From an uncultured Eubacteriaceae bacterium (GTDB lineage Bacteria; Bacillota; Clostridia; Lachnospirales; Lachnospiraceae): 63,114 nt of DNA. A program made the position numbers and the translations under genes. Within the stretch, counting starts at the first letter, position 1; every line of letters starts with the position of its first letter. The notes below the pieces were generated by a model that worked only from the letters and a program-made list of their open reading frames with translations, made no database searches and had not been told where the DNA came from. This document shows positions 21,671 to 63,114 of this stretch, piece by piece. The stretch spans positions 1 through 63,114 of the forward strand of contig CANRVK010000001.1 of assembly GCA_947643285.1 (NCBI GenBank). Direction: 5' to 3'.

Positions 21671-21804
21671 TTAGAACAGTCAACAACCGAGCGGAGGCAA
21701 GGAAATATTCCAAAAGAAGCCCCTTGGAAGACGTCGGTACTAAATTCGCAGTTCCGCAGGAAGCGGAGCTGCGAATTTAGTACCGCTACGTCTGGAACGG
21801 AGCG
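21671..21804 (-). repeat. Structured palindromic element, copy 1 left part (interrupted by the IS4 element)
   Basis: TTAGAACAGTCAACAACCGAGCGGAGGCAAGGAAATATTCCAAAAGAAGCCCCTTGGAAGACGTCGGTACTAAATTCGCAG...CTGCGAATTTAGTACCGCTACGTCTGGAACGGAGCG. The strand field gives the strand carrying the A-form consensus defined in the findings. Confidence 0.85.
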
Positions 21805-23366
21805 CAATGTCATTAAGTTAAAAAAATGACCCTTGAGAATAAAATAAAAATCTCAAATTTTTGAGTATTATGCGGATTTTAGCATACTTTAATAAAACAG
21901 ATGGAAATCTGCCTCAACTTATGTTATACTTTCTATGATTCACATCGATCTGTAATTAAATTTATGTGGTCGCTGTGTTGATTTTTTTCTTAAGCTGCTT
22001 CGGTCTGGGCGGATTGGGAGCAGCTCTCTTGAAATAAGAAAATCTGCATTCTTGGAAAGCATATTCCCACATAATTTCAAAAATTTGCAGCATATATGGA
22101 TTGCATTTGTAATGTTAAGCTGACAAATATATTTACTTTGATACGTTCTTTTGGTTAACTGATTGGTAACTGCTCTGGAATAATTGGAAAGAATCAATCG
22201 TGCCCATAGTTCCATTTCGATCGCCTCCACTTTTTTAGAATGAAAATCCAAAAGACCAACGGAATACTTTAAATGCCGAAAAGATGTTTCGATCCCCCAG
22301 CGCATATGATAGAGTTCTTTTAATGAATTCTTATCAAATTTATCAGAAGGAAGATTAGTCAGCAAACATTCGTATGCCCCATTTCCCAGCGGAATCCTTA
22401 CCACGCGAAATGCCATATGGTATTCTTTTACATTTTCATTCAAAAAATATGGTGTAGAAGTGGAATGAACTCTGTGATATGCTTCCAGGTTACTTCTAAG
22501 GTTAGATCGTATTTTGTGTACGAATATTTTGTCATAGATAAAATCGAATTCTTCTTCGTCAGGATGGGAAATTCCTTTTAATATACCACCTGTATTCCAA
22601 TCTTTTGCTCGTATCAGAAAAAACTGGTTCTTACTGGCAATATGAGCCATAAGAGAGTATTCTTGATAGCCTCTGTCAAAGATAAAAATAGAATGAGGAG
22701 CAAATGAATGTTTCTCAAAAAGGTGATGGAAAGCATTTCTTTCATTATGTCCTTTCCTTGGCTCGATATATGCTGCTGCATATTGATGGTTCATCAAGTT
22801 ATAAACGGCATTGAGATGAAGCTGATGGTAGCATTGCTGCCCCTTTCTACAGAAATAGCGATAGGCTTTGTTTTCTTTTTCAAGAGGGATGAGAAGAACA
22901 GAGCCATCTACAGCAAATAGGGAAAAACCATGATATTGCTGAGAAGAAAACTCCTTGGAAAATGCATGAAAAAGATGCTCAAAAGCAACTGGTTTCAATT
23001 TATCCCGCTGTTGAACAAAGGCAGAAGAGGTAGGTGTATCAATAGAGTAATCAAAAAACTTTTGTAATTCACTGGATATAGAACCACGTTCCATAGAGAT
23101 TAGGGACATGATTGTATTTTGGAAAGAAAGTTTTGAATTTCGGCTGAAATCTTGAAAGGGTCTTTTCACAAAATCCTCTTTATGTTGTGCCATCTGTTCG
23201 ACATGTTTCCATAATAAGTTTTTTACAGATAAGGAAATATTCATATGCTGTACCTCCAAAATGTATCTATTTAGAGACTACACAACATTTTTTTAAGCAT
23301 TTGTCAAGCACTTTTTTGAGATTTTTATTTCATTATCAAGGTACTTTTCTTAACTTAATGACATTG
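21805..23366 (-). mobile_element. IS4-family insertion sequence with terminal inverted repeats and a 10-bp target-site duplication
   Basis: The left end CAATGTCATTAAGTTAA (21805-) is the reverse complement of the right end TTAACTTAATGACATTG (-23366). The direct repeat GAACGGAGCG lies at 21795-21804 and 23367-23376. A single transposase ORF lies inside. Confidence 0.9.
21940..23259 (-). CDS. IS4-family DDE transposase
   Basis: FAVDGS, IFIFDRGY and YHMRWGIETSFRHLK (the Y-2-R-3-E-6-K signature of the IS4 family) are present. 439 aa. Confidence 0.9.
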   Translation of the reverse strand: MEVQHMNISLSVKNLLWKHVEQMAQHKEDFVKRPFQDFSRNSKLSFQNTIMSLISMERGSISSELQKFFDYSIDTPTSSAFVQQRDKLKPVAFEHLFHAFSKEFSSQQYHGFSLFAVDGSVLLIPLEKENKAYRYFCRKGQQCYHQLHLNAVYNLMNHQYAAAYIEPRKGHNERNAFHHLFEKHSFAPHSIFIFDRGYQEYSLMAHIASKNQFFLIRAKDWNTGGILKGISHPDEEEFDFIYDKIFVHKIRSNLRSNLEAYHRVHSTSTPYFLNENVKEYHMAFRVVRIPLGNGAYECLLTNLPSDKFDKNSLKELYHMRWGIETSFRHLKYSVGLLDFHSKKVEAIEMELWARLILSNYSRAVTNQLTKRTYQSKYICQLNITNAIHICCKFLKLCGNMLSKNADFLISRELLPIRPDRSSLRKKSTQRPHKFNYRSM

Positions 23367-23445
23367 GAACGGAGCGAAAGCGTGGCTTCGCTGGAATATT
23401 TCCTTGCCGTAGCGCCCCTTTCGTCAAAATGTTCTCTTCCCTTTT
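23367..23445 (-). repeat. Structured palindromic element, copy 1 right part
   Basis: GAACGGAGCGAAAGCGTGGCTTCGCTGGAATATTTCCTTGCCGTAGCGCCCCTTTCGTCAAAATGTTCTC continues the consensus exactly where the left part stops. Confidence 0.85.
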
Positions 23446-23539
23446 TCCTTAATTTCGCTCTTATTAAGGATAAAATTGGAATTATAGCTAAATAATAGCA
23501 ATTTATAAATATTTAATAGATTTTTCATTCATTCATTGC

Positions 23540-23568
23540 TTGACTTTTTTTTCACAAAATGAGATAAT
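23540..23568 (+). promoter_or_regulatory. Sigma-A-type promoter upstream of pckA
   Basis: TTGACT (23540-23545), a 17-nt spacer, then GATAAT (23563-23568). Confidence 0.5.
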
Positions 23569-23602
23569 AAAAAAAATTTGATATGATTAAGGAGGAATTA
23601 AA

Positions 23603-25276: not shown

Positions 25277-25329
25277 AAAGATAAAAATATTTGACAAAAT
25301 TGGAAAAGAGTAGAAATAGATAGAATGAC

Positions 25330-25380
25330 AAAAAGACTGCTGCAAAAAATTATCGCGAGATTTTTTGTAGGGGTCTTTTT
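25330..25380 (+). terminator. Probable intrinsic terminator after pckA
   Basis: AAAAAGAC..GCAAAAAAT-loop-ATTTTTTGTAGGGGTCTTTTT forms a long imperfect hairpin ending in a T-run. Confidence 0.5.
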
Positions 25381-25577
25381 GTGTTATAATAACTTAATCT
25401 GCGGAATTTGTAGACATTTATGATTAGTTATCATGCAAAAAGTGTGTTATCCTAAAAAAATAAACAATATTTTAATTTTTTCTATAAAAATATTATAAAA
25501 TAAAGCGATTATTCCGATAAATATAGAAAATTATAATGTAAATTTTTAGCAAATTTATCTGATTTGGAGGCAGCAAA

Positions 25578-26024: not shown

Positions 26025-26112
26025 GAAAATATCCGTTTACACTATTATTTTAACTCTCTATAAAGTATGATTTAAATAAAAGTAGGAATAAAATTTTTGT
26101 ATTCTAAATGAT

Positions 26113-26140
26113 AATGCGCTTTTAAGCGCATTTTTATTTA
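26113..26140 (+). terminator. Intrinsic terminator
   Basis: AATGCGCTT-tt-AAGCGCATT followed by TTTATTTATTTTT. Confidence 0.65.
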
Positions 26141-26259
26141 TTTTTAGTTTATTCTTAGTATTTCAGGCATAAAGAGAAGACAGGATAATATATATATTAT
26201 AGGAAATACAGGATTTTTCATATTTTACTAAAATTACTAAGGAATACGACAAATTAAAC

Positions 26260-26288
26260 TTGAAAAATTGGATAGAATACAGTATAAT
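26260..26288 (+). promoter_or_regulatory. Near-consensus sigma-A promoter driving the candidate RNA
   Basis: TTGAAA (26260-26265), a 17-nt spacer, then TATAAT (26283-26288). Confidence 0.6.
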
Positions 26289-26294
26289 AATTTA

Positions 26295-26527
26295 TAGAAA
26301 AAATAGTTCTGTTTCCTGAGGTGTTCGATACTCTTATTTTTTTGAACCTACATTTACGATTATGGGATTCCTATATTGCTGGTCAGGATGTCAAGCCTCC
26401 TCTGAGTGGAAGGCAGAATGTCAGCTGCGGTCACCCACCTAGCTGTGGCTAGGCGTCAAAATAATAAGAAACGGCATTTTGGGGCATAACAAAAGAAGAA
26501 AAAGCAGTCTTTGGACTGCTTTTTTTA
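26295..26527 (+). ncRNA. Candidate structured small RNA or cis-regulatory leader of unknown class
   Basis: It is bounded by the promoter above and by the terminator AAAGCAGTC-tttg-GACTGCTTT+TTTT (26501-26527). It contains local hairpins (GCCTCC-tctgagt-GGAAGGC, CCTAGC-tgtg-GCTAGG) and a possible closing helix (CTTATTTTTTT near 26333 with AAAATAATAAG near 26459). No convincing ORF or RBS is present. Confidence 0.4.
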
Positions 26528-28451: not shown

Positions 28452-28640
28452 TTTTTGATTTTCGCCCGGTTTCCGCTGTGGGAAGGAAGTATTCCAACGA
28501 AACTGCGCTTTCGCTCCGTGTAAGACTACGTGGTACTAAATTCGCAACCCTTATCAGGGCTGCTCATTAATGGGCAAGCGTCTTCTAAGGGGTTTCTTTT
28601 GGAATACTTCCTTCCCACGGCTGCTTTGATGATAAGATGA
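28452..28640 (+). repeat. Structured palindromic element, copy 2 (somewhat diverged)
   Basis: GGGAAGGAAGTATTCCAACGAAACTGCGCTTTCGCTCCGTGTAAGACTACGTGGTACTAAATTCGCAA-CCCTtatcAGGG-CTGCTCATTAATGGGCAAGCGTCTTCTAAGGGGTTTCTTTTGGAATACTTCCTTCCC. It starts 18 bp after the SpoIID-domain stop. Confidence 0.85.
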
Positions 28641-31710: not shown

Positions 31711-31800
31711 TAGGGGGAAGTTTTGATCGGAGGTTCGCACGGCAAGAAATTATTCCAGCGAAGCCGCGCTCTCGCCCCGTGAAAGACTACGCGGTACTAA
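31711..31800 (+). repeat. Structured palindromic element, copy 3a (5' arm only)
   Basis: TAGGGGGAAGTTTTGATCGGAGGTTCGCACGGCAAGAAATTATTCCAGCGAAGCCGCGCTCTCGCCCCGTGAAAGACTACGCGGTACTAA. Confidence 0.8.
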
Positions 31801-31893
31801 TAAAAACTACCTCCAGTTAGAAAATTTTGATATTATAGGAACAAAAAAGTATGAACAAGTTTGTCGATTATTAAGCCACTTATATAAAACAAT

Positions 31894-32003
31894 CGCAAGA
31901 AGCGAAACGGCGAATTTAGTGTCCGCGTAGTCTTACACGGAGCGAAAGCGCGGCTTCGTTGGAATAGGGATTCGTTCCTATGCGAACCTTTAGTCAAAAT
32001 AGT
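31894..32003 (-). repeat. Structured palindromic element, copy 3b (same arm in inverted orientation)
   Basis: CGCAAGAAGCGAAACGGCGAATTTAGTGTCCGCGTAGTCTTACACGGAGCGAAAGCGCGGCTTCGTTGGAATAGGGATTCGTTCCTATGCGAACCTTTAGTCAAAAT. Confidence 0.8.
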
Positions 32004-33686: not shown

Positions 33687-36017
33687 ATGGGAATGGTGAT
33701 GAATGTGACAGAGGAAAAAAAGAAAATATCTGTAGAGAAAGAAAATACGATAGAAAGATCAGAGGAACAACAATTATTAAAGCCAGCAGATTTTACAGAT
33801 CCCAAGATTTTATATGATGTTCTTGTGAAGGAGATTTTAAAGTATCATCCTTCTACAGATCTGAGTATGATTGATAAAGCATATAAAATAGCCAAAAAAG
33901 CTCATGAAGGGCAGATGCGTAAATCAGGAGAACCTTATATCATTCATCCTTTATGCGTAGGGATTATTTTAGCAGAGTTAGAACTAGATAAAGAAACGAT
34001 AGCGGCTGGTCTTCTGCATGATGTGGTAGAGGATACCGTTATGACAAAAGAGGAGATAACTGATATTTTTGGAGAAGAAGTGGCGCTTTTGGTAGATGGA
34101 GTCACAAAGCTGACACTATTAAATATTTCAAATGATAAGGTGGAAGTGCAGGCGGAAAATTTAAGAAAAATGTTTTTGGCGATGGCAAAGGATATAAGAG
34201 TTGTGCTGATAAAATTAGCGGATCGCCTACATAATATGCGCACATTACAATATCAGAGTCCGCAAAAGCAAAAAGAGATTGCCAGAGAAACGATGGATAT
34301 TTATGCTCCTATCGCTCATCGGTTAGGTATTTCTAAGATAAAGATGGAATTAGATGATTTATCTTTGAAATATTTGATGCCAGAAGTGTATTATGATCTG
34401 GTAAGGGATATCGCACAGACTAAGAAGTCAAGAGAAGAGTTTATTGATGGACTGGTAAAAAGTGTAAAAAGTAATATACAAAAGGCGGAAATAGGGGCAG
34501 AAATAGATGGAAGAGTGAAGCATTTCTTCAGTATTTATCGAAAGATGGTCAATCAAAATAAGACCTTAGACCAAATTTATGACTTATTTGCTGTTCGTAT
34601 TATTGTGGATACCGTGAGAGACTGCTATGCGGCATTGGGAGTGATTCATGAATTGTATACTCCTATACCGGGGCGGTTTAAAGATTATATTGCTATGCCA
34701 AAAGCGAATATGTATCAATCTCTGCATACAACAGTGATAGCGCCGAATGGACAGCCATTTGAAATTCAGATTCGTACCATAGAGATGCACAGGACAGCAG
34801 AATATGGAATTGCTGCTCACTGGAAATATAAACAGGGAGTGACTGGAAAAGATATCGCTAAGAGTGAGGAAGAGAAATTAAGCTGGTTAAGACAGGTTTT
34901 AGAATGGCAAACGGATATGTCTGATAATAAGGAATTTATTAATACGGTGAAAAGCGCTTTTAATTTATTTTCAGAGAGTATCTATTGTTTTACGCCTACA
35001 GGAGATGTGAAGACATTGCCGAATGGCTCGAATACCATTGATTTTGCGTATAGTATTCACAGTGCGGTGGGAAATAAGATGGTAGGAGCGAGAGCGAATG
35101 GAAAGATGGTTCCGATTGATTATGTGATTCAAAATGGAGATAGAATCGAGATCATCACTTCTCAAAATTCAAAAGGACCGAGCAGAGATTGGCTGAATAT
35201 TGTCAAAAGCACTCAGGCAAAAAATAAAATCAATCAATGGTTTAAAACAGAGCTAAAAGAAGACAATATCATTCGTGGAAAAGATCTGCTAGATAAGTAT
35301 TGCAGGGCGAAGGGAATTACACAGAGTGATATTTTAAAACCAGAATATATAGAAATCATCATGAAGAAATATGGATTTCGAGATTGGGATTCTGTATTGG
35401 CGGCATTAGGGCATGGTGGCTTAAAAGAAGGGCAGATTATTAATAGACTTTTGGAGGAATTTGATAAAAAACGTAAAAAAGAACTCACGGATTCCGAAGT
35501 ATTAGAAGCGATTTCTCAAAACAAAGAGAAAAATGCAAAAGTGAGAGTTGCAAAGAGTAAAAGTGGCATTATAGTAAAAGGAATTCATGACATATCGGTG
35601 CATTTCTCTAAGTGCTGTAATCCTGTGCCGGGAGATGAGATTGTGGGATTTGTGACAAGGGGAAGAGGTGTTTCTCTTCACCGTACAGATTGTATCAATA
35701 TCATTAATCTGCCGGAGAGTGAAAGAGTTCGTCTGATTGAAGCAGAATGGCAGGAAACATATGATGAAGGTTCAGAAGTATATGTGACAGAAATTAAAAT
35801 ATATGCGAATAATCGAACCGGAATGGTGGGAGATATTTCAAAAATATTGACAGAAAAGAAGATAGATATAAAAGGATTAAATTGTAAGGTAAATAAACAG
35901 GAGATTGCTACTATTGTGATGTCATTTGAAACACATGGAAAAGAAGAATTAAATCACATTATAGATAAGCTGAAAAATATTGAGGGTGTGATTGATATTG
36001 AGAGGGCTACTGGCTGA
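33687..36017 (+). CDS. rel: Bifunctional (p)ppGpp synthetase/hydrolase, RelA/SpoT family
   Basis: It has the HD domain (HPLCVG...LHDVVEDT), a synthetase region (YIAMPKANMYQSLHTTV) and TGS and ACT-like C-terminal domains. The exact start among the ATGs at 33687, 33693 and 33699 is uncertain. Confidence 0.9.
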   Translation: MGMVMNVTEEKKKISVEKENTIERSEEQQLLKPADFTDPKILYDVLVKEILKYHPSTDLSMIDKAYKIAKKAHEGQMRKSGEPYIIHPLCVGIILAELELDKETIAAGLLHDVVEDTVMTKEEITDIFGEEVALLVDGVTKLTLLNISNDKVEVQAENLRKMFLAMAKDIRVVLIKLADRLHNMRTLQYQSPQKQKEIARETMDIYAPIAHRLGISKIKMELDDLSLKYLMPEVYYDLVRDIAQTKKSREEFIDGLVKSVKSNIQKAEIGAEIDGRVKHFFSIYRKMVNQNKTLDQIYDLFAVRIIVDTVRDCYAALGVIHELYTPIPGRFKDYIAMPKANMYQSLHTTVIAPNGQPFEIQIRTIEMHRTAEYGIAAHWKYKQGVTGKDIAKSEEEKLSWLRQVLEWQTDMSDNKEFINTVKSAFNLFSESIYCFTPTGDVKTLPNGSNTIDFAYSIHSAVGNKMVGARANGKMVPIDYVIQNGDRIEIITSQNSKGPSRDWLNIVKSTQAKNKINQWFKTELKEDNIIRGKDLLDKYCRAKGITQSDILKPEYIEIIMKKYGFRDWDSVLAALGHGGLKEGQIINRLLEEFDKKRKKELTDSEVLEAISQNKEKNAKVRVAKSKSGIIVKGIHDISVHFSKCCNPVPGDEIVGFVTRGRGVSLHRTDCINIINLPESERVRLIEAEWQETYDEGSEVYVTEIKIYANNRTGMVGDISKILTEKKIDIKGLNCKVNKQEIATIVMSFETHGKEELNHIIDKLKNIEGVIDIERATG

Positions 36018-38762: not shown

Positions 38763-38943
38763 GATTTTACTTGGCAAAAAACCCATCTCTTTTTTATAGT
38801 ATAGCGTATGTGGTGATTGCTGTCAAGCATGATTTTTGAAATCTTCAATAAGTCTTTTGAAACCTTACTACTAATAGGGGGCTGAAAGCCTTATAAAATA
38901 AGGGTTTAAGATTCCAAGAAGTTATGAATAGGTAATTGCGAAA

Positions 38944-39150
38944 GTCAAAAGGGACGCTGCGGCAAGGAAGTATTCCAGCGAAGCCACGCTTTCGCTCCGT
39001 TCCAGACGTAGTGGTACTAAATTCGCGGTTTCGCTTCTTGCGAAACTGCTCATTAAGTACCAACGTCTTCCAAGGGGCTTCTTATGGAATACTTCCTTGC
39101 CTCCGCTGGTAGTTGGCTGTTCTACTTTTTGAAAAATGAAACTTGTGATA
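38944..39150 (+). repeat. Structured palindromic element, copy 4
   Basis: GTCAAAAGGGACGCTGCGGCAAGGAAGTATTCCAGCGAAGCCACGCTTTCGCTCCGTTCCAGACGTAGTGGTACTAAATTCGCG-GTTTCGCttctTGCGAAAC-TGCTCATTAAGTACCAACGTCTTCCAAGGGGCTTCTTATGGAATACTTCCTTGCCTCCGCTGGTAGTTGGCTGTTCTAC. Confidence 0.9.
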
Positions 39151-41753: not shown

Positions 41754-41757
41754 TCGT

Positions 41758-44457: not shown

Positions 44458-44613
44458 GAATTGATAAAGAAATGATGTTTATATAATATAAAGTGGAACA
44501 GTTTTTATGCAAAAAGATAAGCTTTATGTATATATAAAGTTCTACATGAATTTTCTATAAAATACATTTTTTATTATTCAAAGATTCGTTGATATAGGAA
44601 AAGATTGGCAAAT

Positions 44614-44676
44614 GGTTCGCGCAGGAACGAATCTATTCCAACGAAGCCGCGCTCTCGCTCCGTTCCGTTGCGAACC
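44614..44676 (+). repeat. Structured palindromic element, copy 5 (mini version)
   Basis: GGTTCGCGCAGGAACGAATCTATTCCAACGAAGCCGCGCTCTCGCTCCGTTCCGTTGCGAACC. The 5' arm core is closed directly by the inverted terminal GCGAACC. Confidence 0.75.
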
Positions 44677-44850
44677 TTTTATTAATTTGTACCCCAAACA
44701 ATTATACTCTAAATTAAAAAAATGATATTTTATAAATGATAATAACATTTTTAAGATTCTCAAAAGGTTTGAATTTAATCATTCATGAATAGCTTTAAAT
44801 GATATAACAAATACTAAAGAAAAATAATGAAAAGAAGGTATTAAAATAAA

Positions 44851-50086: not shown

Positions 50087-50274
50087 TAGGGGGAAGGGGT
50101 TGGCGAAAGGTTCGCTCCAGAAAGACCCTATTCCAACGAAACCGCGCTCTCGCTCCGTTCCAGACGTAGTGGACACTAAATTCGCAAATCCCGCTTCTTG
50201 CGGGTTTGCTCATTAAGTGCCAACGTCTTCCAAGGGGTTTCTTTTGGAATAGGGTCTTTCCTCCGCTAGTTTTC
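50087..50274 (+). repeat. Structured palindromic element, copy 6
   Basis: TAGGGGGAAGGGGTTGGCGAAAGGTTCGCTCCAGAAAGACCCTATTCCAACGAAACCGCGCTCTCGCTCCGTTCCAGACGTAGTGGACACTAAATTCGCAAAT-CCCGCttctTGCGGG-TTTGCTCATTAAGTGCCAACGTCTTCCAAGGGGTTTCTTTTGGAATAGGGTCTTTCCTCCGCTAGTTTT. Confidence 0.9.
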
Positions 50275-50428: not shown

Positions 50429-50914
50429 ATGCGAAAGGAAATTGCGGAGATGAACTTTTTAGTTGAATTAAAAAAGATTACTCGGGAAAATATAGATGAA
50501 GTTCTTGCATTGAAAGTTTCTGCAGAACAAGATAATTTCGTAGAGAATACAGCACGTAGTTTAGCAAAGGCGTGGGTATATAAAAATACCGCTTTTCCTT
50601 TTGCTATATATGTACACAACACAATAGTTGGTTTTATAATGTTAGGTTATTATGAGTTGAAGAACCAATATACTGTTTGGCAATTTTTGATTGATGAGCG
50701 ATATCAACATAAAGGATATGGAAAAGTCGCTTTGAGATTAGGAATACAATTTTTGATAGATGAATTTAACATTAATGAAGTTTATCTTGGAGTAAAGTTT
50801 GAAAATATTGTAGCAAAAAAACTATACTCCTCTTATGGTTTTGTCGAAACCGGTGAAACAACGGATACTGCACTTGAAATGAAGCTTATTATTAGTGAAA
50901 AAATGACGAAATAA
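50429..50914 (+). CDS. GNAT-family N-acetyltransferase
   Basis: The acetyl-CoA-binding pattern QFLIDERYQHKGYGKVAL is present. The protein is 154-161 aa depending on the start (50429 or 50450). Confidence 0.75.
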   Translation: MRKEIAEMNFLVELKKITRENIDEVLALKVSAEQDNFVENTARSLAKAWVYKNTAFPFAIYVHNTIVGFIMLGYYELKNQYTVWQFLIDERYQHKGYGKVALRLGIQFLIDEFNINEVYLGVKFENIVAKKLYSSYGFVETGETTDTALEMKLIISEKMTK

Positions 50915-50943: not shown

Positions 50944-51140
50944 TTAGAATAGACGATAAACTAGCAAAGGCAAAGAAGGAATTCCAAAAGAAACCCCTTG
51001 GAAGACGTTGGTACTTAATGAGCAGTCCTGTTAAGGGCTGCGAATTTAGTATCCGCTACGTCTGGAACGGAGCGAGAGCGCGGTTTCGTTGGAATCCTTC
51101 TTTGCCTTTGCGAACCTTTCGTCAAAGTGTTCTCTTAACT
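50944..51140 (-). repeat. Structured palindromic element, copy 7
   Basis: TTAGAATAGACGATAAACTAGCAAAGGCAAAGAAGGAATTCCAAAAGAAACCCCTTGGAAGACGTTGGTACTTAATGAGCAGTCCTgttaAGGGCTGCGAATTTAGTATCCGCTACGTCTGGAACGGAGCGAGAGCGCGGTTTCGTTGGAATCCTTCTTTGCCTTTGCGAACCTTTCGTCAAAGTGTTCTC. Confidence 0.9.
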
Positions 51141-51405: not shown

Positions 51406-51879
51406 ATGAGTATAAATAAAACAAATTATAAATCGTATCATAAAATAATTGTTTTCTCACTTGTTTTAATTATTTTATTCGGCTTAATCATAGGACAAAA
51501 AGAGAGTTCTGAGGAAAAATATGATTTTTTTGGAACTTGGCGTATTGAAAAGGTGGCATTAACTTCAGAGATGTATACAGGGACAACCTTAGATGGGGTT
51601 CGAGAAGAGGATTTGTATGATTCAGAAGATTATCTTGGGTATGAATTAGAATATTCTTCTAAAATTTTTCGGCTAGGAGATGCAAAATATAAAAATCCAA
51701 ATTATGTTATAACAGATATAACAATAAAGAGTTTTGATGATGGAGTAGAATTTGAAGAAGAGATAGCATATAAAAAATATAATTTTGTTCCAGTAGGAAC
51801 ACAATGTGTATTATTGAATCATGATATTATGCTTATAGGATTGTGGGGAAAGGTTCTTATAGCATATAGAGTGAAATAG
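51406..51879 (+). CDS. Hypothetical membrane-anchored protein
   Basis: 157 aa with an N-terminal hydrophobic anchor (IIVFSLVLIILFGLII). No family was recognised. A possible 32-codon upstream ORF (51321-51419, RBS AAGGGGGA) overlaps its start. Confidence 0.45.
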   Translation: MSINKTNYKSYHKIIVFSLVLIILFGLIIGQKESSEEKYDFFGTWRIEKVALTSEMYTGTTLDGVREEDLYDSEDYLGYELEYSSKIFRLGDAKYKNPNYVITDITIKSFDDGVEFEEEIAYKKYNFVPVGTQCVLLNHDIMLIGLWGKVLIAYRVK

Positions 51880-52008
51880 AGAGTATTTATTATACTATTT
51901 ATTTCTTGGTAAATGATGTAGAAGATAAGGCAATTATATGCGGTATTCCATGATTCTAATAAAATGAAATAACATAATTAGAACTTTAAATAAGGAAAGT
52001 AAAAATAG

Positions 52009-53346
52009 ATGAAAAAAATAAACTATGTTTTAATATTATGTATAATAATTCTATTTTTCATAGGTTTAAGTTTTGTCTATGATAAAGTTTCTGAAGAGGT
52101 AGAAAAAGAAATTATAAAAGAGTCTACTTTTGAAGAAAAAGCAATACCAAAAATAGTAGATATTATTATAACTAACAATTATTATGTTGCTCTTTGTGAA
52201 GATGGAACGGTGTGGAGTTGGAATATTAATCAGAAAACTGAGAATGTTCAGAAAGTATGTCTGTTAAAAGATATCATTAAGATTATGGAAGTGGGAACGG
52301 AAGAGGTTACAATATATGCTCTTTCAAAAGATGGATTTATCTATGCGTGGGGAAGTAATAAAGGGTTATTCATTACTACAGAAGAGGATTCTGATAAAAT
52401 ATTTTATGAACCAGTTAAGTTAAAGGGACTATCAGATATTATAGAAATAGATGCTAATAATGGAAAAGCGTTTGCATTGGATAGAAATGGTACATTTTAT
52501 GTATGGGGAGTATCTCTATATTGGAATGATGTAGAAGACTTAAAACCGGGATTTCCTCAAGAAAAAAAGAACTTGGTTGAGGGAGTAAAAGTTTTAGTTG
52601 CTGGTGCTGGGGAATATAATTATTTTATTCGAGAGGATAAAAGTATTTTTTCAATTATGGAAGCAAGCTTACTTGATTCACGGCATATATATCCTTATAT
52701 TTTTCCAAAATTTGAAAAAAAAGGGTATGAAACCAACAAAAATTTTACAAATTCCATATTTTTATTAGAAAATGCTATTTCTTTAAGTCAAGGGTCAAAA
52801 TTGGGTTTGACGGTTTTACATGAACTTGGAATCTGTGATAATATTGAGAAGATAGGGGCAGATGGATATACTATATTTATATATAGGGAAGATAATACTC
52901 TTTGGTATTGGAATAGTGATAGAATTATATATCATGATAATATAGCTGCTCTTGCAAACCCTGAAACCGCTCTTATTAATTATAGTGGCAGTTTTGAAAA
53001 AATTGATTTTGAAAATGTGTTAGGAAATGAGAGAAGTAATAGTACTTTGAAGATTGTAGATATTTGTGCAGGATTAGAAAATGTGCTATTTTTAACAAGT
53101 GATGGGCAAGTTTTTATGAGCGAATATAAAACAAGTGAAATACGAGATATTGAGTATTATAATACAACAAATACAAACATAAACCGAACAGAAGTTACAA
53201 GTGTTATTTCAGATATGCATTTAAAAGAACTAATTTTTAGAAAATTAGATTTTCAAGAAATTATTAGTATTAACACAGATGGTAATTTTTGTTTTTCTCT
53301 TGTAAATGAAAAAGGGGAGTATTTTTGTTTGAATTTAATAAAATAA
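52009..53346 (+). CDS. Membrane-anchored protein with RCC1/BLIP-II-like beta-propeller repeats
   Basis: It has an N-terminal TM segment (YVLILCIIILFFIGLSFVY). Repeated motifs ALCEDGTVWSWN, ALSKDGFIYAWGSN, ALDRNGTFYVWG and FLTSDGQVFM are present. Confidence 0.5.
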   Translation: MKKINYVLILCIIILFFIGLSFVYDKVSEEVEKEIIKESTFEEKAIPKIVDIIITNNYYVALCEDGTVWSWNINQKTENVQKVCLLKDIIKIMEVGTEEVTIYALSKDGFIYAWGSNKGLFITTEEDSDKIFYEPVKLKGLSDIIEIDANNGKAFALDRNGTFYVWGVSLYWNDVEDLKPGFPQEKKNLVEGVKVLVAGAGEYNYFIREDKSIFSIMEASLLDSRHIYPYIFPKFEKKGYETNKNFTNSIFLLENAISLSQGSKLGLTVLHELGICDNIEKIGADGYTIFIYREDNTLWYWNSDRIIYHDNIAALANPETALINYSGSFEKIDFENVLGNERSNSTLKIVDICAGLENVLFLTSDGQVFMSEYKTSEIRDIEYYNTTNTNINRTEVTSVISDMHLKELIFRKLDFQEIISINTDGNFCFSLVNEKGEYFCLNLIK

Positions 53347-53397
53347 AAATATAACAATAGAGAGTATTTATCATACTCTCTATTCCCTTTTTTATAC

Positions 53398-54261: not shown

Positions 54262-54454
54262 AAAATATCTCTCCTTTTAAAATAATCTATGAAAAATTAT
54301 TTCGTTTAATCCTATGTAAACAATAATTCTAATAATTAGCTCCTTTCTTTTCCTTTTAAATTGGAATTTAAGCTATATTATAACACCTACATAAAAAATA
54401 ATCTATATTTATCTATTCTTAACAGCACGGATAGTTACAGTTCAGCCTATTTGG

Positions 54455-54655
54455 ACATCAAAGGTTCGCTCCGGCAAGGAAGTATTCCAACGAAACCGCG
54501 CTCTCGCTCCGTTCCAAACGTAGCGGTACTAAATTCGCAGCCCCTAACAGGACTGCTCATTAAGTGCCAACGTCTTCCAAGGGGTTTCTTTTGGAATATT
54601 TCCTTGCCTTCGCTAGTCTGTTAACGGTTCTACTCTGTGAAAAGCGAATTTCACC
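54455..54655 (+). repeat. Structured palindromic element, copy 8
   Basis: CATCAAAGGTTCGCTCCGGCAAGGAAGTATTCCAACGAAACCGCGCTCTCGCTCCGTTCCAAACGTAGCGGTACTAAATTCGCAGCCCCTAACAGGACTGCTCATTAAGTGCCAACGTCTTCCAAGGGGTTTCTTTTGGAATATTTCCTTGCCTTCGCTAGTCTGTTAACGGTTCTACTCTGTGAAAAGCGAAT. Confidence 0.9.
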
Positions 54656-54711
54656 ATAACAAATAAAATAAAAAGACGGAACTGTTACCACGGATAAGTA
54701 AATTTTATTAG

Positions 54712-55443
54712 TTATAGAGTTTGTATTTTCAATTTATATGTTTTAATTATATCCAATGTGTTTGTGCTTAATTTTTCGTTATCTTTCGTGTTTATATACA
54801 AATCATAATTATCAGCAGTTTCTACTTTACAAAAAGAGGTTGCAGAATAATCAAATGGATTACTACTATTTGTAATAATTCCAGAATAAATAGCCTCTTC
54901 TTTCATTGCATATAAGATTTCATCGATATCATTTGGCATATACCAAATATTTGTAAAATCCACTTTATTTATTCCTTCTTCATCTAGACAATAATTATTA
55001 TGATAAATAATTCGTTTATTGATAAAATTTTTTCGATAGGGCGATTCACTGCCATATGCAATATTCATAATGATATCTTTTATTTTGTCAACAAAGTTAT
55101 CATGATACATATGAAAACAATTATCTACCAGATTTTTATAATATTCATCTGCTTGACTTATACCGAGTGGTTGCATATACTGTAACAGTTTATTTTTTAT
55201 TAAAAAGTTTATGATCAATAATTTTATCTGTAGATGTTCTTCAAGACTTAATCCAATTGTATCATTACAGTATCCTTCAAAATATTCTTCTTTTAAATCA
55301 CTATAAGATTCTTTTGACAGTTCATGTATTTTTGTATCACAACGATAAAAAACTAAGGATTCGTTTTTTTTTCTAATACTATCTAATATATTATACTCTT
55401 TATCTAAACTTATAAATCCAACATCTTTTATTATATATTTCAT
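54712..55443 (-). CDS. Hypothetical protein, no recognisable family, in a visibly more AT-rich segment
   Basis: A 243-aa ORF, the only long ORF between repeat copies 8 and 9. An RBS-like AGGGAGA lies upstream of the ATG. Confidence 0.45.
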   Translation of the reverse strand: MKYIIKDVGFISLDKEYNILDSIRKKNESLVFYRCDTKIHELSKESYSDLKEEYFEGYCNDTIGLSLEEHLQIKLLIINFLIKNKLLQYMQPLGISQADEYYKNLVDNCFHMYHDNFVDKIKDIIMNIAYGSESPYRKNFINKRIIYHNNYCLDEEGINKVDFTNIWYMPNDIDEILYAMKEEAIYSGIITNSSNPFDYSATSFCKVETADNYDLYINTKDNEKLSTNTLDIIKTYKLKIQTL

Positions 55444-55850: not shown

Positions 55851-56052
55851 GATTCACTTTCCACAGATTAGAACAGCCGACAAGCTAGCGGAGGCAAGGA
55901 AGTATTCCAAAAGAAACCCCTTGGAAGACGTTGGTACTTAATGAGCAGCTCCATAAGGAGTTGCGAATTTAGTACCGCTACGTCTGGAACGGAGCGAGAG
56001 CGCGGTTTCGTTGGAATACTTCCTTGCCGTAGCGTTTCCTTTGGTCTTCAAA
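55851..56052 (-). repeat. Structured palindromic element, copy 9
   Basis: GATTCACTTTCCACAGATTAGAACAGCCGACAAGCTAGCGGAGGCAAGGAAGTATTCCAAAAGAAACCCCTTGGAAGACGTTGGTACTTAATGAGCAG-CTCCataaGGAG-TTGCGAATTTAGTACCGCTACGTCTGGAACGGAGCGAGAGCGCGGTTTCGTTGGAATACTTCCTTGCCGTAGCG. Confidence 0.9.
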
Positions 56053-60734: not shown

Positions 60735-60856
60735 GAATGGAAAAAGTGATCCGATAATACTTTCGGCAATTTTACCAATTTACATCTTGTGTTGTGTAAA
60801 AGCTAGTAGGTATGATAAAATCAAATCGACAAATCAGGATTTATGGAGGAGATAAA

Positions 60857-61039
60857 ATGGAAAAGAAAGAACGATTTAAGATAGCTTATTCACAAGGAAC
60901 TTTGGATGTAGTGCAAATTTTGGTAGATACGGAAACTGGTGTGAATTATGTGTTTCGTAAAGCTGGATATGGGGGAGGAATGACACCGCTGTTGGACAAA
61001 GATGGAAAACCTGTTATTTCTCCGACTGCAAACAACTAA
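60857..61039 (+). CDS. Small conserved hypothetical protein (DUF6440-like by recollection)
   Basis: MEKKERFKIAYSQGTLDVVQILVDTETGVNYVFRKAGYGGGMTPLLDKDGKPVISP. The ATG at 60857 follows GGAGGAG. Confidence 0.45.
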   Translation: MEKKERFKIAYSQGTLDVVQILVDTETGVNYVFRKAGYGGGMTPLLDKDGKPVISPTANN

Positions 61040-61200
61040 CTTCAGTCATTCAAATTCCGGTTTATCGGGCAGTCATCTGTCTTTGGATAACTGCCCACAT
61101 ATATAGCTATTTTGACGAAAATTAGGAAATAGAACTCCCATCAACACAGAAGGTAAAAGGGAGAAAAAAGTTAGTGATCAGTAATTGCTTCAGTAATTAT

Positions 61201-61388
61201 GAGGGGAAAATGAGGGAAAAAGGTTCGCCCCTGTGAACATCTATTCCACCGAAGCCGCGCTTTCGCTCCGTTCCAGACGTAACGGACACTAAATTCGCAA
61301 ATCCCGCTTCTTGCGGGTTTGCTTATTAACGTGCCGGCGTCTTCCAAGGGGCTTCTTTTGGAATAGATGTTCGCAGGGGCTAGTTTTT
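61201..61388 (+). repeat. Structured palindromic element, copy 10
   Basis: AAAAAGGTTCGCCCCTGTGAACATCTATTCCACCGAAGCCGCGCTTTCGCTCCGTTCCAGACGTAACGGACACTAAATTCGCAAAT-CCCGCttctTGCGGG-TTTGCTTATTAACGTGCCGGCGTCTTCCAAGGGGCTTCTTTTGGAATAGATGTTCGCAGGGGCTAGTTTTT. Confidence 0.9.
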
Positions 61389-61519
61389 AGATATTTTTCG
61401 GTACGAAATAAAGATAGTTATTCGTACAAAATTTATAAATTCAAATATAAATCTAAATTTTGGAAATCTAGGTTTTTAGGATTTAACTTTTAGATAGTTA
61501 TATTTGTTTGTCTAGTCTT

Positions 61520-62800
61520 TTAACTGCTGATGCTTTCGGGTTCTTCTTTTTCTGGAAGACAATAGATATGAATTTTATCAATACGATTTTTATCTAATGT
61601 TTCTACTATAAAAGTGAGATTGCCTTCTGTAATAGAATCTCCTACTTGAGGCAGTCTATCTAAAACTTCCATAATATGACCTCCCAAAGAATCATAATCC
61701 TCTGAGGTGATATGACTTTTTAGCAGTTCATTGATATCATCTAATTTGATTTGACCATCTACTAGATACTCATTTTCTGTCAGCATAGTGAAATCTTCTT
61801 CTTCGTCTTCATCGTATTCATCTTTAATATCTCCAACGATTTCCTCTAATAAATCTTCTAAGGTGATTAATCCAGCAGTGACTCCATATTCATCTAAAAC
61901 AATTACAATATTTACGGACGCTTTTCGCATTTCTACCATTAATTCAGAAAGCTTTTTGTATTCATAAGTATAATATGGTTCACGCAGATAATCCTGAATC
62001 CGGAAGGGGGCATCGTGCTGATATAAAAGGAGATCTTTCATATTGACAATACCGATTACATTGTCTGTGGATTCTTCATAGACAGGTATTCTGGTAAAAT
62101 GGTGCTGACGAAAGATTTCGATTAACTCTTCATAGGCACAGTCAATCGATGCGAAAGTCATATCAATACGAGGTATCATAACATCTTTTGCTCTGGAATC
62201 TCCGAAATCAAACACATTATTAATCATTCGGCGTTCTTCGCTTTCAATCACTCCTTCTTCATGACTGACATCTACGATTGTGCGCAGTTCACTTTCTGTT
62301 ATAGTATTTTCCTTTGCATTTGGATTCACCCTTAATAAAATTAATAGTCCCATAGATAATTTATTCACAATAAATATCACAGGTGTTAAAACTGTCATAA
62401 GGGTTTTAATAATACCAGCCACTTGAAGCGCTATTTTCTCCGCATGTATAGTAGCGAGAGTTTTTGGGGTGATTTCACCAAAAATTAAAACTAATAGGGT
62501 TAAAGTACCAGTGGCGATTCCAGCACCAGCACTGTCGAATAAATCTGTCGCTAATATAGTGGCGATAGAAGATGCGGAAATGTTGACAACATTATTACCG
62601 ATTAAAATAGCACTCAACATTTTCCCAGAATTTTCAATTACCCAGCCTAGGGTAATGGCTTTTTTATTTCCTTCTTCGATTAAAGTACGAACACGAATAC
62701 GATTTACAGTACTCAAAGCTGTTTCAGAAGATGAAAAAAAAGCAGATAATGCTAACAAAACAATTAGTATCAAAAATTGTGCGGCGACACTCGGGTCCAA
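61520..62800 (-). CDS. CNNM/TlyC-family membrane protein (DUF21 + CBS pair + CorC_HlyC domains; putative divalent-cation transporter or hemolysin-like)
   Basis: 426 aa with an N-terminal 4-TM DUF21 pattern (FFSSSETALS), a CBS pair region and a C-terminal transporter-associated domain. Confidence 0.8.
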   Translation of the reverse strand: MDPSVAAQFLILIVLLALSAFFSSSETALSTVNRIRVRTLIEEGNKKAITLGWVIENSGKMLSAILIGNNVVNISASSIATILATDLFDSAGAGIATGTLTLLVLIFGEITPKTLATIHAEKIALQVAGIIKTLMTVLTPVIFIVNKLSMGLLILLRVNPNAKENTITESELRTIVDVSHEEGVIESEERRMINNVFDFGDSRAKDVMIPRIDMTFASIDCAYEELIEIFRQHHFTRIPVYEESTDNVIGIVNMKDLLLYQHDAPFRIQDYLREPYYTYEYKKLSELMVEMRKASVNIVIVLDEYGVTAGLITLEDLLEEIVGDIKDEYDEDEEEDFTMLTENEYLVDGQIKLDDINELLKSHITSEDYDSLGGHIMEVLDRLPQVGDSITEGNLTFIVETLDKNRIDKIHIYCLPEKEEPESISS

Positions 62801-62950
62801 AAGATCAACTCCTTTTACTTATAAAAAATTACGCCATAGGGCGCATGAGGTTATACAATTATGCTGATAATACAATATTTTCTATAGTATTGTCAAGTTT
62901 TTCAGATAAATTTTAGAAATATTATATTACAGTTTCGTTTACTTTAAAGA

Positions 62951-63114
62951 CAGAGGGACGCTACGGCAAGCACCTATTCCAACGAAGCCGCGCTCTCGCT
63001 CCGTTCCAGACGTAGCGGTACTAAATTCGCGATTTCGCTTCTTGCGAAACTGCTCATTAAGTACCAACGTCTTCCAAGGGGCTTCTTTTGGAATAGGTGC
63101 TTGCCTCCGCTAGT
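62951..63114 (+). repeat. Structured palindromic element, copy 11 (runs to the window end)
   Basis: CAGAGGGACGCTACGGCAAGCACCTATTCCAACGAAGCCGCGCTCTCGCTCCGTTCCAGACGTAGCGGTACTAAATTCGCGA-TTTCGCttctTGCGAAA-CTGCTCATTAAGTACCAACGTCTTCCAAGGGGCTTCTTTTGGAATAGGTGCTTGCCTCCGCTAGT. Confidence 0.9.

Follow-up and report, generated by a model that had tools for sequence, protein, structure and literature searches.

The repeats in this stretch of DNA represent a family of small mobile elements (MITEs) of gut Clostridia that had not been described before. Its copies, of approximately 165–255 bp in a mouse-gut Lachnospiraceae genome, are probably non-autonomous MITEs that are mobile while keeping a constrained folded core, and not gene-specific regulators. 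The window, i.e., the whole stretch of 63,114 nt that was analysed, contains 11 elements; according to an HMM and a covariance model (CM), all copies are located at 21.6–63.1 kb and none at 1–21 kb (Table 1). The core GCGCTCTCGCTCCGT occurs 13 times at ≤3 mismatches vs. 0.2 expected, and GTACTAAATTCGC 12 times vs. 1.35 expected, which bears out the repeat family proposed in an earlier note on this DNA. A match at 35083-35097 lies inside an ORF and is due to chance. Family-wide, 371 non-overlapping matches (>350 copies) were found in the fetched contigs. Overlap with a predicted ORF is limited to 4 of 168 copies, so the family is intergenic, as had been claimed. The element body has a GC content of 50%, compared to 32% for the AT-rich genome. 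The family has no match in Rfam, even at E ≤ 10, in agreement with the same note, and none to plasmids or phages.

The copies previously counted do belong to the family, but their number is 11 instead of 12, as those reported separately at 21.7 and 23.4 kb are the halves of one copy with an IS4-like insertion sequence between them. This 1.56-kb element interrupts the copy within GGAACGGAGCG; it has perfect 17-bp terminal inverted repeats (CAATGTCATTAAGTTAA) and a target duplication of 10–11 bp (GAACGGAGCG). The right arm of the split copy carries GCGAATTTAGTAC, exactly complementary to its left arm, at the site where GCTCATTAAGTAC is usually found. Three other descriptions had to be corrected as well: the copies at 31.73 kb(+) and 31.9 kb(−) turn out to be two opposing, truncated left arms, the 44.6-kb copy is a deletion derivative, and the window ends within the last copy, of which the convergent partner is found 273 bp past this point on contig L195 of the same organism. 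The copy at 28470..28627 has the variant P2 allele GTAAGACTACG, while its ortholog in a related MAG (L029) has TCCAGACGTAG. In the copy at 38930..39150 the palindrome reaches further outward, with ATAGGTAATTGCGAAAGTC paired to ACTTGTGATAATCTAT. The copy at 50104..50272 is conserved in the relative L172, and the one at 55882..56041 served as reference for the core (55905-56017). The insertion sequence splitting one copy, the tail-to-tail pairing and the gene conversion among copies are observations that were absent from the earlier note.

Table 1. Family members and an inserted element in the window.
Feature	Position	Strand	Evidence
Copy 1, 3′ part	21660..21805	-	nhmmer 21687-21806, model positions 47-161; CM 77.7 bits; sequence
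IS4-like insertion sequence splitting copy 1 (non-family)	21806..23365	-	DDE_Tnp_1 match 7.5e-24 for ORF 21940-23259(-); junction sequences
Copy 1, 5′ part: left terminus, basal helix, 5′ loop	23366..23445	-	nhmmer 23365-23422, model positions 3-60; sequence
Isolated full copy, 36 bp past SpoIID-domain gene	28470..28627	+	nhmmer; CM 86 bits
Copy truncated to its left arm, behind recJ; convergent-pair member 1	31730..31800	+	nhmmer
Truncated copy, left arm and apex; convergent-pair member 2, 91-bp gap to member 1	31892..31991	-	nhmmer, CM
Isolated full copy, "long" subfamily	38930..39150	+	nhmmer; CM 113.3 bits; sequence
Mini derivative, left arm fused to complement of its own base at CGTTCC microhomology	44610..44686	+	nhmmer; CM 22.9 bits; sequence
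Full copy, 77 bp past purL; left half of convergent pair around GNAT gene 50429-50914	50104..50272	+	nhmmer, CM
Full copy, right half of pair flanking GNAT gene	50958..51120	-	nhmmer; CM 114 bits
Complete 254-bp element, ends TTACAGTTCAG...GGAACTGTTAC	54435..54688	+	filled/empty site comparison
Full copy, convergent with 54.4-kb copy; pair surrounds ORF 54712-55443(-)	55882..56041	-	nhmmer; CM 118.7 bits
Isolated full copy, between PreP-like peptidase gene and 3′ end of CNNM gene	61217..61386	+	nhmmer; CM 102.6 bits
Copy truncated by window end	62950..63114	+	nhmmer, CM

The mobility of the family is best illustrated by the 54.4-kb copy, which has short terminal inverted repeats and is flanked by a 9-bp target duplication, CACGGATAG (54426-54434) and CACGGATAA (54689-54697). 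This copy is missing from L172, of which the flanks are 95% identical at the nucleotide level; the empty site CACTGATAG occurs once and reads AACAACACTGATAG joined to GTAAATTT, compared to CACGGATAG, 254 bp and CACGGATAA in the filled site. A deletion in L172 is an unlikely reading of this difference, because exactly one copy of the duplication would need removing. Two other copies from this subfamily likewise carry 9-bp duplications, i.e., CATAAATAA (perfect) in L063 and TTTTTTAGT/TTTTTTAGG in L024. At least one subfamily has thus been shown to insert with a 9-bp target duplication and short terminal inverted repeats, the evidence being three copies and one empty site of that single subfamily. 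The earlier note, which argued against a simple MITE, had itself named this footprint as speaking for one. A generic search for target duplications with terminal inverted repeats among 121 copies did not outperform its control (40 matches vs. 25–46), no autonomous insertion sequence with matching ends was found, and the flanks in one low-copy lineage are inverted instead of direct repeats. For the most part, the family is old and stable, since 4 of 5 comparable insertions are common to relatives at 93–95% identity. The termini vary among subfamilies and the interior is the conserved part, the opposite of what would be expected if a transposase bound the terminal repeats.

This interior is a folded core of approximately 105 nt. 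It consists of helix P1, a 14-nt 5′ loop CGCUYUCGCUCCGU facing AAGG, P2 (9 bp), a 2-nt bulge, P3 (6 bp), a 3×3 UAA/UAA loop, P4 and a variable apex. In an alignment of 31 sequences from 7 lineages, double-sided changes affect 18 of the 27 pairs. Double-change cells number 102 vs. 29.4 ± 3.9 after shuffling, with 0 of 500 shuffles attaining 102, and 79.5% of the cells are paired compared to 31–40% with the partners slid. RNAalifold recovers P1–P4 independently, and the covariance model gives matches of 80–120 bits on a single strand, distant lineages included. The basal helix has 79 distinct sequences among 114 copies; its own arms pair at 0.859, vs. 0.668 (maximum 0.698) for arms swapped among copies. 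The long imperfect hairpin with three covarying helices and conserved asymmetric loops, as described in the earlier note, is hereby confirmed and generalised. Two of its refinements held in part. The two versions of the middle helix, said never to be mixed, are indeed nearly exclusive (G-C 102, A-T 29), although a few intermediates exist (A.C 4, G.T 4). Likewise, the unpaired segments are the most conserved between lineages, but not within the high-copy family (column scores of 0.856 for paired and 0.821 for unpaired positions). The apical helix varies freely. The structural constraint is stronger than could be seen from this DNA by itself, as the core is kept in at least seven clostridial lineages in which every helix has been re-coded and the element termini are not kept, the 5′ loop and the 3′ AAGG being invariant.

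Covariation might also arise without any selection on structure, if the arms of a quasi-palindrome were homogenised by template switching within the hairpin and by gene conversion between copies. Between orthologous copies, whole blocks are indeed replaced on both arms instead of single positions, copies in L087, L108, L116, and L170 are chimeras with arms of two subfamilies, the 21.7-kb copy has the exactly complementary right-arm part mentioned above, and pair partners are barely more similar than random copies. However, asymmetric loops and conserved mismatches would not survive template switching, whereas lineages that share no helix sequence have all retained the 14-nt loop, the AG bulge, the UAA/UAA loop and the U.C/C.U mismatches. 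Template switching can therefore account for restored complementarity but not for what is conserved, and as a full explanation we hold it very improbable.

The same invariant loops within re-coded helices in seven lineages could point to a structured RNA that primarily serves the host, e.g., in protein binding, in 3′-UTR or intercistronic processing or stability, or as a self-cleaving ribozyme. Its spread in MITE-like fashion within one lineage would in that case be secondary, as with SINEs that descend from functional RNAs. Low-copy genomes have the element in sense orientation, flanked by Pfam-validated housekeeping genes that run co-directionally with it (all 10 neighbours on the strand called the A-form), and the 7-nt apical loop is conserved among the low-copy lineages as AAARRAC. 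Moreover, it is GC-rich in an AT-rich genome, and its two conserved internal loops approximately 15 bp apart with a 2-nt bulge may recall small ribozymes or protein-binding RNAs. Against this, besides the lack of Rfam matches, stands that neighbouring genes have no function in common, that half of the copies in high-copy genomes are antisense to their neighbours (38 co-directional with the upstream gene, 37 opposite), and that several near-identical copies occur at unrelated loci even in "low-copy" genomes. No promoter and no hairpin-plus-U-tract terminator signature is associated with the elements, so that the terminator role suggested before is not supported. Nor is the argument from T.G positions for RNA read from the A-form strand reproduced: in the larger sample the basal-helix wobbles are near parity (G.U 94, A.C 91), which shows no strand preference, and two informative P3 positions give opposite signals. 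A primary host function is therefore considered unlikely.

Copies are frequently arranged in pairs. Among neighbours less than 1 kb apart, 46 are tail-to-tail and 1 is divergent, a bias for which simple transposition gives no explanation. The DNA between tail-to-tail pairs is empty or contains accessory genes (GNAT, RelB/YoeB, an R-M system, and others), most pairs enclosing zero genes. At least two pair members were inserted singly, because each has its own target duplication, and no duplication surrounding a whole pair was found. Such a bias fits REP families (PMC3733652), and a REPIN-like element, mobilised as ssDNA by a domesticated enzyme of the HUH/Y1 type (RAYT- or IS200-like) reading the hairpin and loops, would explain both the dimer orientation and a replication-strand bias. 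Of 28 unpaired copies, 21 have the A-form on the G-rich (leading) strand, GTAG is present at the 5′ foot of P3 with CGTC in the opposite arm, and ssDNA substrates typically conserve structure while varying helix sequence. The copies in L028 and L056 lie within locus-specific palindromes, as do some REPs (PMC3733652). Nevertheless, 9-bp direct target duplications are not the product of a Y1 transposase, a single arm lacks a short REP-type palindrome, the core of approximately 105 nt far exceeds known RAYT or IS200 substrates, and a non-exhaustive look at the fetched loci revealed no Y1/RAYT gene. This origin thus seems highly doubtful.

For a MITE with a constrained core, the following mechanism can be proposed. 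A DDE-type transposase, as candidate enzyme, may act in trans and make the staggered cut. The core would be a cis-acting module that is read single-stranded, its loops being recognised by sequence and its helices by shape alone, so that only copies that keep the fold would propagate or persist. Block conversion and chimeric copies are observed; arm complementarity is probably maintained, and variants spread, by gene conversion and by template switching within the hairpin. Isolated copies have a median 5′-side gap of 71.5 nt, and the gene on that side is co-directional in 13 of 18 cases. Most unpaired copies, 20–75 nt behind a co-directional gene, would be transcribed as a long 3′-UTR or intercistronic hairpin, which could block exonucleases or undergo cutting by RNase III. 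New copies may land tail-to-tail beside residents, such that pairs would come to enclose a short spacer or a small islet of accessory genes.

Several known systems use similar principles. Bcr1 from the Bacillus cereus group (Group A) is likewise a MITE-like chromosomal repeat of a Firmicute; it is approximately 155 bp long, has 5-bp direct-repeat flanks and positions that vary between strains, and is transcribed, with compensatory changes preserving structure at the RNA level (PMC3184786). Its sequence is unrelated, its duplication measures 5 bp and its two hairpins form a cruciform-like fold, whereas the family described here duplicates 9 bp and folds into one long hairpin with a cross-genus core; a tail-to-tail bias is unreported for bcr1 in that review (PMC3184786). 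The ERIC/IRU elements of Enterobacteriaceae are imperfect palindromes of approximately 127 bp of the MITE class, with terminal inverted repeats and target duplications, present in few to hundreds of copies across related genera in transcribed intergenic regions (PMC3184786). ERIC belongs to another phylum, though, shows no sequence similarity and has a TA target, and neither a large conserved asymmetric loop nor pairwise tail-to-tail arrangement is described for it. Wilson & Sharp 2006 reportedly found cross-genus conservation and compensatory changes in ERIC.

REPs and REPINs also form hairpin doublets in which inverted dimers, head-to-head and tail-to-tail, dominate and head-to-tail ones are almost absent (PMC3733652; PMC3116915). 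They persist vertically for long, are mostly intergenic near the 3′ ends of upstream ORFs, and are in part embedded in palindromes (PMC3733652; PMC3116915). However, REPs are units of 20–40 bp with a GTAG or CGTC head, they leave no target duplication and they are mobilised by RAYTs, unlike the element described here. Integron attC sites similarly conserve structure over sequence, set the strand by asymmetric extrahelical features, have a variable terminal structure and accompany small accessory-gene cassettes, e.g., TA systems and GNATs. In contrast to attC, the present element has a target duplication, no R″/R′ (GTTRRRY) boxes and no adjacent integrase; its copies are scattered, not arrayed, and flank cargo in inverted, not direct, orientation.

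A 9-bp duplication is a hallmark of IS4-family Tn5/Tn10, and is the feature shared with composite transposons of that type. Inverted copies of small elements bracketing cargo genes are known from IMU in Enterobacter cloacae and from the 439-bp MITEs that straddle Acinetobacter integrons (PMC3184786). Compared to these units, pairs in the present family are mostly gene-free, and at least two of their members have a duplication of their own. The family is a well-documented addition to the known class of bcr1-, ERIC- and REPIN-like repeats, and not a novel type of system.

The repeat family announced in the earlier note is real. The window has 13 matches to its 15-nt core GCGCTCTCGCTCCGT at up to 3 mismatches, compared to 0.2 expected, and 12 occurrences of a second segment, GTACTAAATTCGC, compared to 1.35 expected. 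Repeat finding, a covariance model and an HMM trained on eight copies from the window agree on the placement of the copies. There are 11 elements in the window; elements of the family are 165–255 bp long, are devoid of ORFs and have a G+C content of 50.5%, versus 32% for the window. The copies are confined to the 21.6–63.1 kb part, the operon-dense first 21 kb holding none. A candidate at 35083–35097 lies inside an ORF and was rejected as a chance match. The A-form, i.e., the strand with the 14-nt 5′ loop CGCUYUCGCUCCGU, folds at −79.1 kcal/mol in one copy (z = −7.1 versus shuffled sequence), and the complement strand of this copy at −86.3 kcal/mol (z = −8.6).

Two sites at 21.7 and 23.4 kb that had been counted as separate copies proved to be the halves of a single one, with an IS4-like element in between. 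This insertion sequence (IS) has perfect terminal inverted repeats (TIRs) of 17 bp (CAATGTCATTAAGTTAA) and a target duplication of 10–11 bp (GAACGGAGCG), and its insertion point is the conserved 5′ loop of the repeat copy. It was rejected as a specific parasite of the element, as its ends and the junction are absent from every other fetched locus. At 31.73 kb (+) and 31.9 kb (−), two truncated left arms lie face to face. The copy at 44.6 kb is a deletion derivative (mini copy), of which a short hairpin, GGTTCGCGCAGGAACG...CGTTCCGTTGCGAACC, is left; it looks like the product of a deletion with breakpoints at two CGTTCC microhomologies, of which the 5′ loop and the right basal helix hold one each. 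Solo left arms in several loci stop near the same point (model positions ~3–58).

In distant lineages the central core of ~105 nt alone is recognizable, but it is so at once. In the window, it corresponds to 56017–55905 on the minus strand. It comprises four helices, named P1 to P4 from base to apex. P1 is a long helix with a lineage-specific sequence, and the 5′ loop (R)CGCUYUCGCUCCGU sits opposite AAGG. P2 has 9 bp, e.g., GAGAGACGU/ACGUCUCUC or GUAAGACAU/AUGUCUUAC, of which just 6 pair in the family of the window. A 2-nt bulge on the 5′ side reads AG, UG or AA. P3 has 6 bp (CGGUAC/GUACCR, CGGCAC/GUGCCG, CGCUAC/GUAGCG, CGUUAC/GUAACG or UGGCAC/AUGCCA), above which lies a 3 × 3 loop, UAA/UAA, whose 5′ strand varies slightly. 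P4 is topped by an apex that ranges in length from 7 to over 100 nt.

To what extent these helices covary is apparent from an alignment of 31 sequences from about seven lineages, anchored on the conserved loops. Both sides change in 18 of the 27 pairs, versus 11.6 ± 1.3 in shuffles. The number of double-change cells is 102, versus 29.4 ± 3.9, a value that none of 500 shuffles reached, and 79.5% of the cells are paired, versus 31–40% with partners slid by 1–3 columns. RNAalifold, blind to the proposed structure, returns the same four helices, and a covariance model from this alignment scores copies, distant ones included, at 80–120 bits on one strand and ~15–25 bits on the other. In the high-copy family, the basal helix has 79 different sequences among 114 copies; pairing is 0.859 with the own arm, versus 0.668 (maximum 0.698) with arms swapped between copies. 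The middle helix of the earlier note has G-C in 102 copies, A-T in 29 and an intermediate in 8. The structural claim is stronger than the earlier note had put it. The accompanying claim, that the unpaired segments are the most conserved, holds between lineages, where the invariant columns are mostly in loops, but not within the high-copy family, in which the core is uniformly conserved throughout and variation is limited to the basal and apical helices. As several genera have identical loops on helices that are fully re-coded, the family offers a natural experiment of unusual clarity on selection for shape.

A pattern scan in which each species was represented by a single genome identified at least 69 loci. 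Most of those listed belong to MGBC136627, a Lachnospiraceae MAG from mouse gut, many contigs of which begin or stop inside a copy; the remaining listed loci belong to a Butyrivibrio MAG, to uncultured Clostridia and Lachnospiraceae from deer gut and to a human-gut MAG from the Hadza. Scanning metagenomes gave 120 further loci, and the HMM detects 371 non-overlapping copies in all fetched DNA, in several subfamilies that differ in their outer parts. For assembly this matters, as short-read assemblies of gut Lachnospiraceae break at near-palindromes of 170–250 bp, of which a genome has hundreds. Parts of the window are 93–96% identical to a MAG contig, L029, and a metagenome contig, L172, which by this measure are close relatives of the window organism. 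At Rfam gathering scores, a 6S RNA gene (RF00013, 68.1 bits), canonical and full length, is the only match in the window and no family covers the elements; neither four copies searched at E ≤ 10 nor 18 MAG loci gave a match for the element, in agreement with the earlier note, which had recognized no RNA family in it. In the searchable literature, no description of a comparable repeat from Lachnospiraceae or Clostridia was found. PLSDB plasmids and GenBank phages gave no match with blastn in distant mode and the pattern scan gave one weak match only in viral contigs; the family is therefore chromosomal.

The mobility of the element is best illustrated by contig L172, which is 95% identical to the 44.8–54.8 kb part of the window, yet lacks the 54.4-kb copy. 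The empty site reads ...AACAACACTGATAG|GTAAATTT... and the filled site in the window reads ...AACAGCACGGATAG[TTACAGTTCAGCC...GGAACTGTTAC]CACGGATAAGTAAATTTT.... The insert of 254 bp lies between two direct copies of a 9-bp sequence that is present once in the empty site, and its ends, set by this site, form imperfect TIRs of about 9–10 bp (TTACAGTTC... / ...GAACTGTTAC). Copies with the same termini in two other loci have 9-bp duplications as well, a perfect one in L063 at 6638 (−), CATAAATAA, and TTTTTTAGT/TTTTTTAGG in L024 at 3674 (+), so that the evidence for target-site duplications (TSDs) comes from three copies of one subfamily. A fixed 9-bp duplication combined with TIRs is the signature of DDE transposition, 9 bp being the duplication length of Tn5/Tn10-type IS4-family enzymes. 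The outer ends differ between subfamilies, with the end motifs TTACAGTTCAG... and AGAACAY.../...TTCTA, only the former being placed by an empty site, and a generic scan for TSDs and TIRs over all subfamilies did not exceed the control in these AT-rich flanks. Apart from the one empty site in L172, the four other copies that can be compared with L029 and L172 are found at the same sites; the family is mostly old. Close to the empty site, L172 carries a 1.56-kb insertion encoding an IscB-type protein of 427 aa (RRXRR and HNH), with a non-coding leader of ~200 nt upstream of the gene and flanking hairpins CCCCACTTGTAGAAGTGGGG and CCCACCACTTTAGAAGTGGGGG. It looks like an IS200/IS605-type OMEGA element and is absent from the window.

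In size (<~500 bp), multiplicity, TSD, TIR and empty site, the element matches a MITE. The suggestion that it is more than that holds only in part, its mobility being of a classical type. The reading that we favor, with moderate confidence, is a MITE family of which the interior, rather than the ends, is the conserved part. The element would be moved by a DDE enzyme supplied in trans, and its core would be a cis-acting module working single-stranded, with loops read by sequence and helices by shape only. Selection would act via the propagation or persistence of copies. Among the ORFs enclosed by pairs of copies in the fetched loci there is no autonomous IS with matching ends, and the terminal motif occurs in MITE copies alone; the ends of the IS4-like IS of the window are unrelated to those of the element. 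Two traits remain unexplained. The core is constant but the termini are variable and, in one GC-rich low-copy lineage, the element is bracketed by perfectly complementary, locus-specific 11–12-mers that are inverted and not direct repeats. The latter would reflect either insertion into palindromic targets or a palindrome growing outward.

How copies evolve can be followed in orthologs, which let gene conversion be told from compensatory change. Between the window and L029, the P2/P3 segment has been replaced as a block on both arms (TCCAGACGTAG versus GTAAGACTACG, with matching changes on the opposite arm), rather than by scattered substitutions, while the flanks show ordinary point changes. 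Several copies are chimeric, their left and right arms belonging to different P1 subfamilies, and in the IS-split copy a part of the right arm is the exact complement of the left arm. Based on these block replacements, chimeras and the right arm turned complement, gene conversion between copies would help to keep the arms complementary, as would, probably, template switching within the hairpin. Palindrome homogenization of this kind could proceed without selection, but as a full explanation this is highly improbable, as it conflicts with asymmetries that are conserved. Neither process accounts for the survival of the asymmetric loop, the bulge, UAA/UAA and a U.C/C.U tandem mismatch in lineages with unrelated helix sequences, for which selection on the fold and the loop sequences is required.

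The core may work as RNA or as single-stranded DNA. The earlier note took positions with T opposite G as a pointer to the functional strand, but wobbles contradict each other in the larger sample: the basal helix has 94 G.U versus 91 A.C, pair 1 of P3 (33 C.A versus 2 U.G) favors the other strand and pair 4 of P3 (47 U.G) favors the A-form. In high-copy genomes, the orientation toward the upstream gene is random overall (38:37), because many copies sit in inverted pairs. Of the unpaired copies, 21 of 28 have the G-rich strand as the one that carries the A-form, and 13 of 18 have a co-directional gene as their 5′ neighbor; median gaps are 71.5 nt (5′ side) and 171 nt (3′ side). In low-copy lineages, all ten Pfam-validated neighbor genes are on the A-form strand (RseP and IspG, PolA, SDR, RecJ, a PALP enzyme, LysR, MBL-fold, DUF2201 and GH94). 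This context fits transcription of the A-form as a 3′-UTR or intercistronic hairpin, but exposure on the lagging-strand template is an equally good fit, replication and transcription bias being inseparable with few cases and automated gene calls that are unreliable in GC-rich loci. An RNA with a function in the host, possibly as a catalyst or in protein binding, that was dispersed secondarily would agree with the low-copy neighbors and less readily with the random orientation in high-copy genomes; we consider it unlikely. A gene-specific riboswitch or leader was rejected, as the neighbors are unrelated housekeeping genes. Consensus scans for promoters and terminators found nothing element-specific, merely incidental sub-hairpins inside the elements, the 3′ end of which is typically CTAGTTTR. 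Rho-independent terminators have a GC-rich stem followed by a U-tract and are oriented with the upstream gene; the element shows neither, and the terminator role raised in the earlier note is dropped. For the favored MITE, an RNA hairpin may affect neighboring transcripts, and long hairpins placed in many 3′ UTRs and intergenic regions are of interest for gene expression.

Neighboring copies obey a striking orientation rule, which the earlier note had not noticed. When less than 1 kb apart, 46 pairs of neighbors are convergent (A-form + then −, thus tail-to-tail), 1 is divergent and 2 are direct, whereas at 2–8 kb the reverse class is ahead by 57 versus 8, contig breaks inside copies inflating this class. 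Convergence at short range and the reverse at 2–8 kb is the pattern expected of a string of pairs. The window has four tail-to-tail pairs including the last one, whose partner was predicted and then found 273 bp past the window end on a contig of the same organism. The shortest gaps, of 90–165 bp, are merely two abutting tails. Where a pair encloses no ORF of 90 codons or more and genes are called to either side of it, these genes are co-directional in 16 of 19 cases. Longer gaps hold small accessory genes, the products of which are three GNAT acetyltransferases, RelB/YoeB, an AraC regulator, a C26 peptidase, a PstI-type restriction-modification pair, BioY, DUF2716, DUF5131, HAD, MCP and uncharacterized proteins, and none of the pair-enclosed ORFs is a transposase. 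Spacers of tail-to-tail pairs also contain a second non-coding repeat of ~190 bp, in either orientation and without Rfam match, with a GGGGUAA...UUACCCC hairpin preceded by TATAAT. Directly downstream of MAG tail-to-tail pairs lie a T-box leader and a NiCo riboswitch; those pairs are therefore upstream of the leader of the next gene and not within it. L172 lacks an RCC1-repeat ORF with its surroundings and has a deletion of ~200 bp inside the GNAT gene enclosed by the 50.1/51.0-kb pair.

Positions of individual copies and associated features (window or fetched locus)
Feature	Sequence	Position	Details
IS4-like IS	window	21806-23365	DDE_Tnp_1 transposase, 439 aa; 1.56 kb
6S RNA gene	window	26310-26489 (+)	
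Mini copy	window	44610-44686	
54.4-kb copy	window	54435-54688 (+)	
Deletion in GNAT gene	window	50635-50836	deleted in L172
RCC1-repeat ORF	window	52009-53346	51755-53356 missing from L172
IscB-type insertion	L172	280-1841	window site 54310/54311
Flanking 12-mers	L028	5626-5637/5782-5793	CTGTTTTGTCGT/ACGACAAAACAG
Flanking 11-mers	L056	7346-7356/7552-7562	GTTTCGCTCTG/CAGAGCGAAAC
~190-bp spacer repeat	L008	1862-2050	
~190-bp spacer repeat	L021	4877-5091	
~190-bp spacer repeat	L036	3785-3951	
~190-bp spacer repeat	L033	395-492	
~190-bp spacer repeat	L045	4784-4851	
T-box leader	L013	3979-4180	
NiCo riboswitch	L050	525-643	

As to their origin, the pairs are not duplications, partners being 0.83 identical versus 0.79 for random copies and often belonging to different subfamilies. 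They are not composite transposons with a TSD of their own either, as there are no matching 9-mers outside the pairs and two members carry their own TSDs. Because the 54.4-kb copy and the L063 copy each own a TSD, pairs would not need to move as units. Since pairs are neither duplications nor necessarily units, the bias must come either from orientation-specific insertion beside the tail of a resident copy or from selection; an insertion preference may underlie it. The predominance of inverted dimers is common to REP/REPIN sequences, which is the point of contact with REPIN-like mobilization of single-stranded DNA by an HUH enzyme. That alternative is contradicted by the TSD and is very unlikely. 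In an unsystematic look at about 1.2 Mb of fetched loci, no RAYT (Y1) gene was noticed. The near-absolute tail-to-tail rule and the enclosed genes make it possible to test how small elements select their site and orientation, and the pairs allow a test of whether gene cassettes are moved or insulated.

A more far-reaching possibility, decidedly unlikely, is that the core is an undescribed functional nucleic-acid module of Clostridia spread through genomes on MITE backbones, e.g., a self-cleaving or protein-recruiting RNA or the folded single-stranded DNA site of an as yet unknown recombinase, and that pairs delimit accessory cassettes. If so, cassettes with toxin-antitoxin systems, restriction-modification systems and GNATs would be of a new kind, mobile or insulated, and an active RNA or an enzyme's single-stranded DNA site would be a new motif class, missing from Rfam.

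The closest functional analogues of the element are bcr1, ERIC elements, REP dimers/REPINs and integron-bracketing MITE pairs. Elements of the bcr1 family in the Bacillus cereus group are ~155 bp long, have direct repeats, are transcribed and show compensatory changes (PMC3184786). REP dimers and REPINs resemble the element in the dimer rule and in persistence, head-to-head and tail-to-tail dimers being common in REP families and head-to-tail ones nearly absent (PMC3733652). However, a REP unit is a palindrome of 20–40 bp with a GTAG/CGTC head and no TSD, whereas the arms of the element have no such short palindrome and its TSD measures 9 bp; what GTAG and CGTC the element has lie within helices P2/P3. 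The integron-bracketing MITE pairs are alike in the arrangement of cargo. Integron attC sites themselves have GTTRRRY R″/L″-L′/R′ boxes and lie in direct arrays next to intI, whereas the consensus of the element has no such boxes and its copies are inverted around cargo; no integrase was found among the enclosed or adjacent ORFs scanned. Altogether, the element is well supported as a structured repeat that gut Lachnospiraceae carry in high copy number and that had not been described, and it belongs within a known class, since each of its unusual traits has a precedent in some family.
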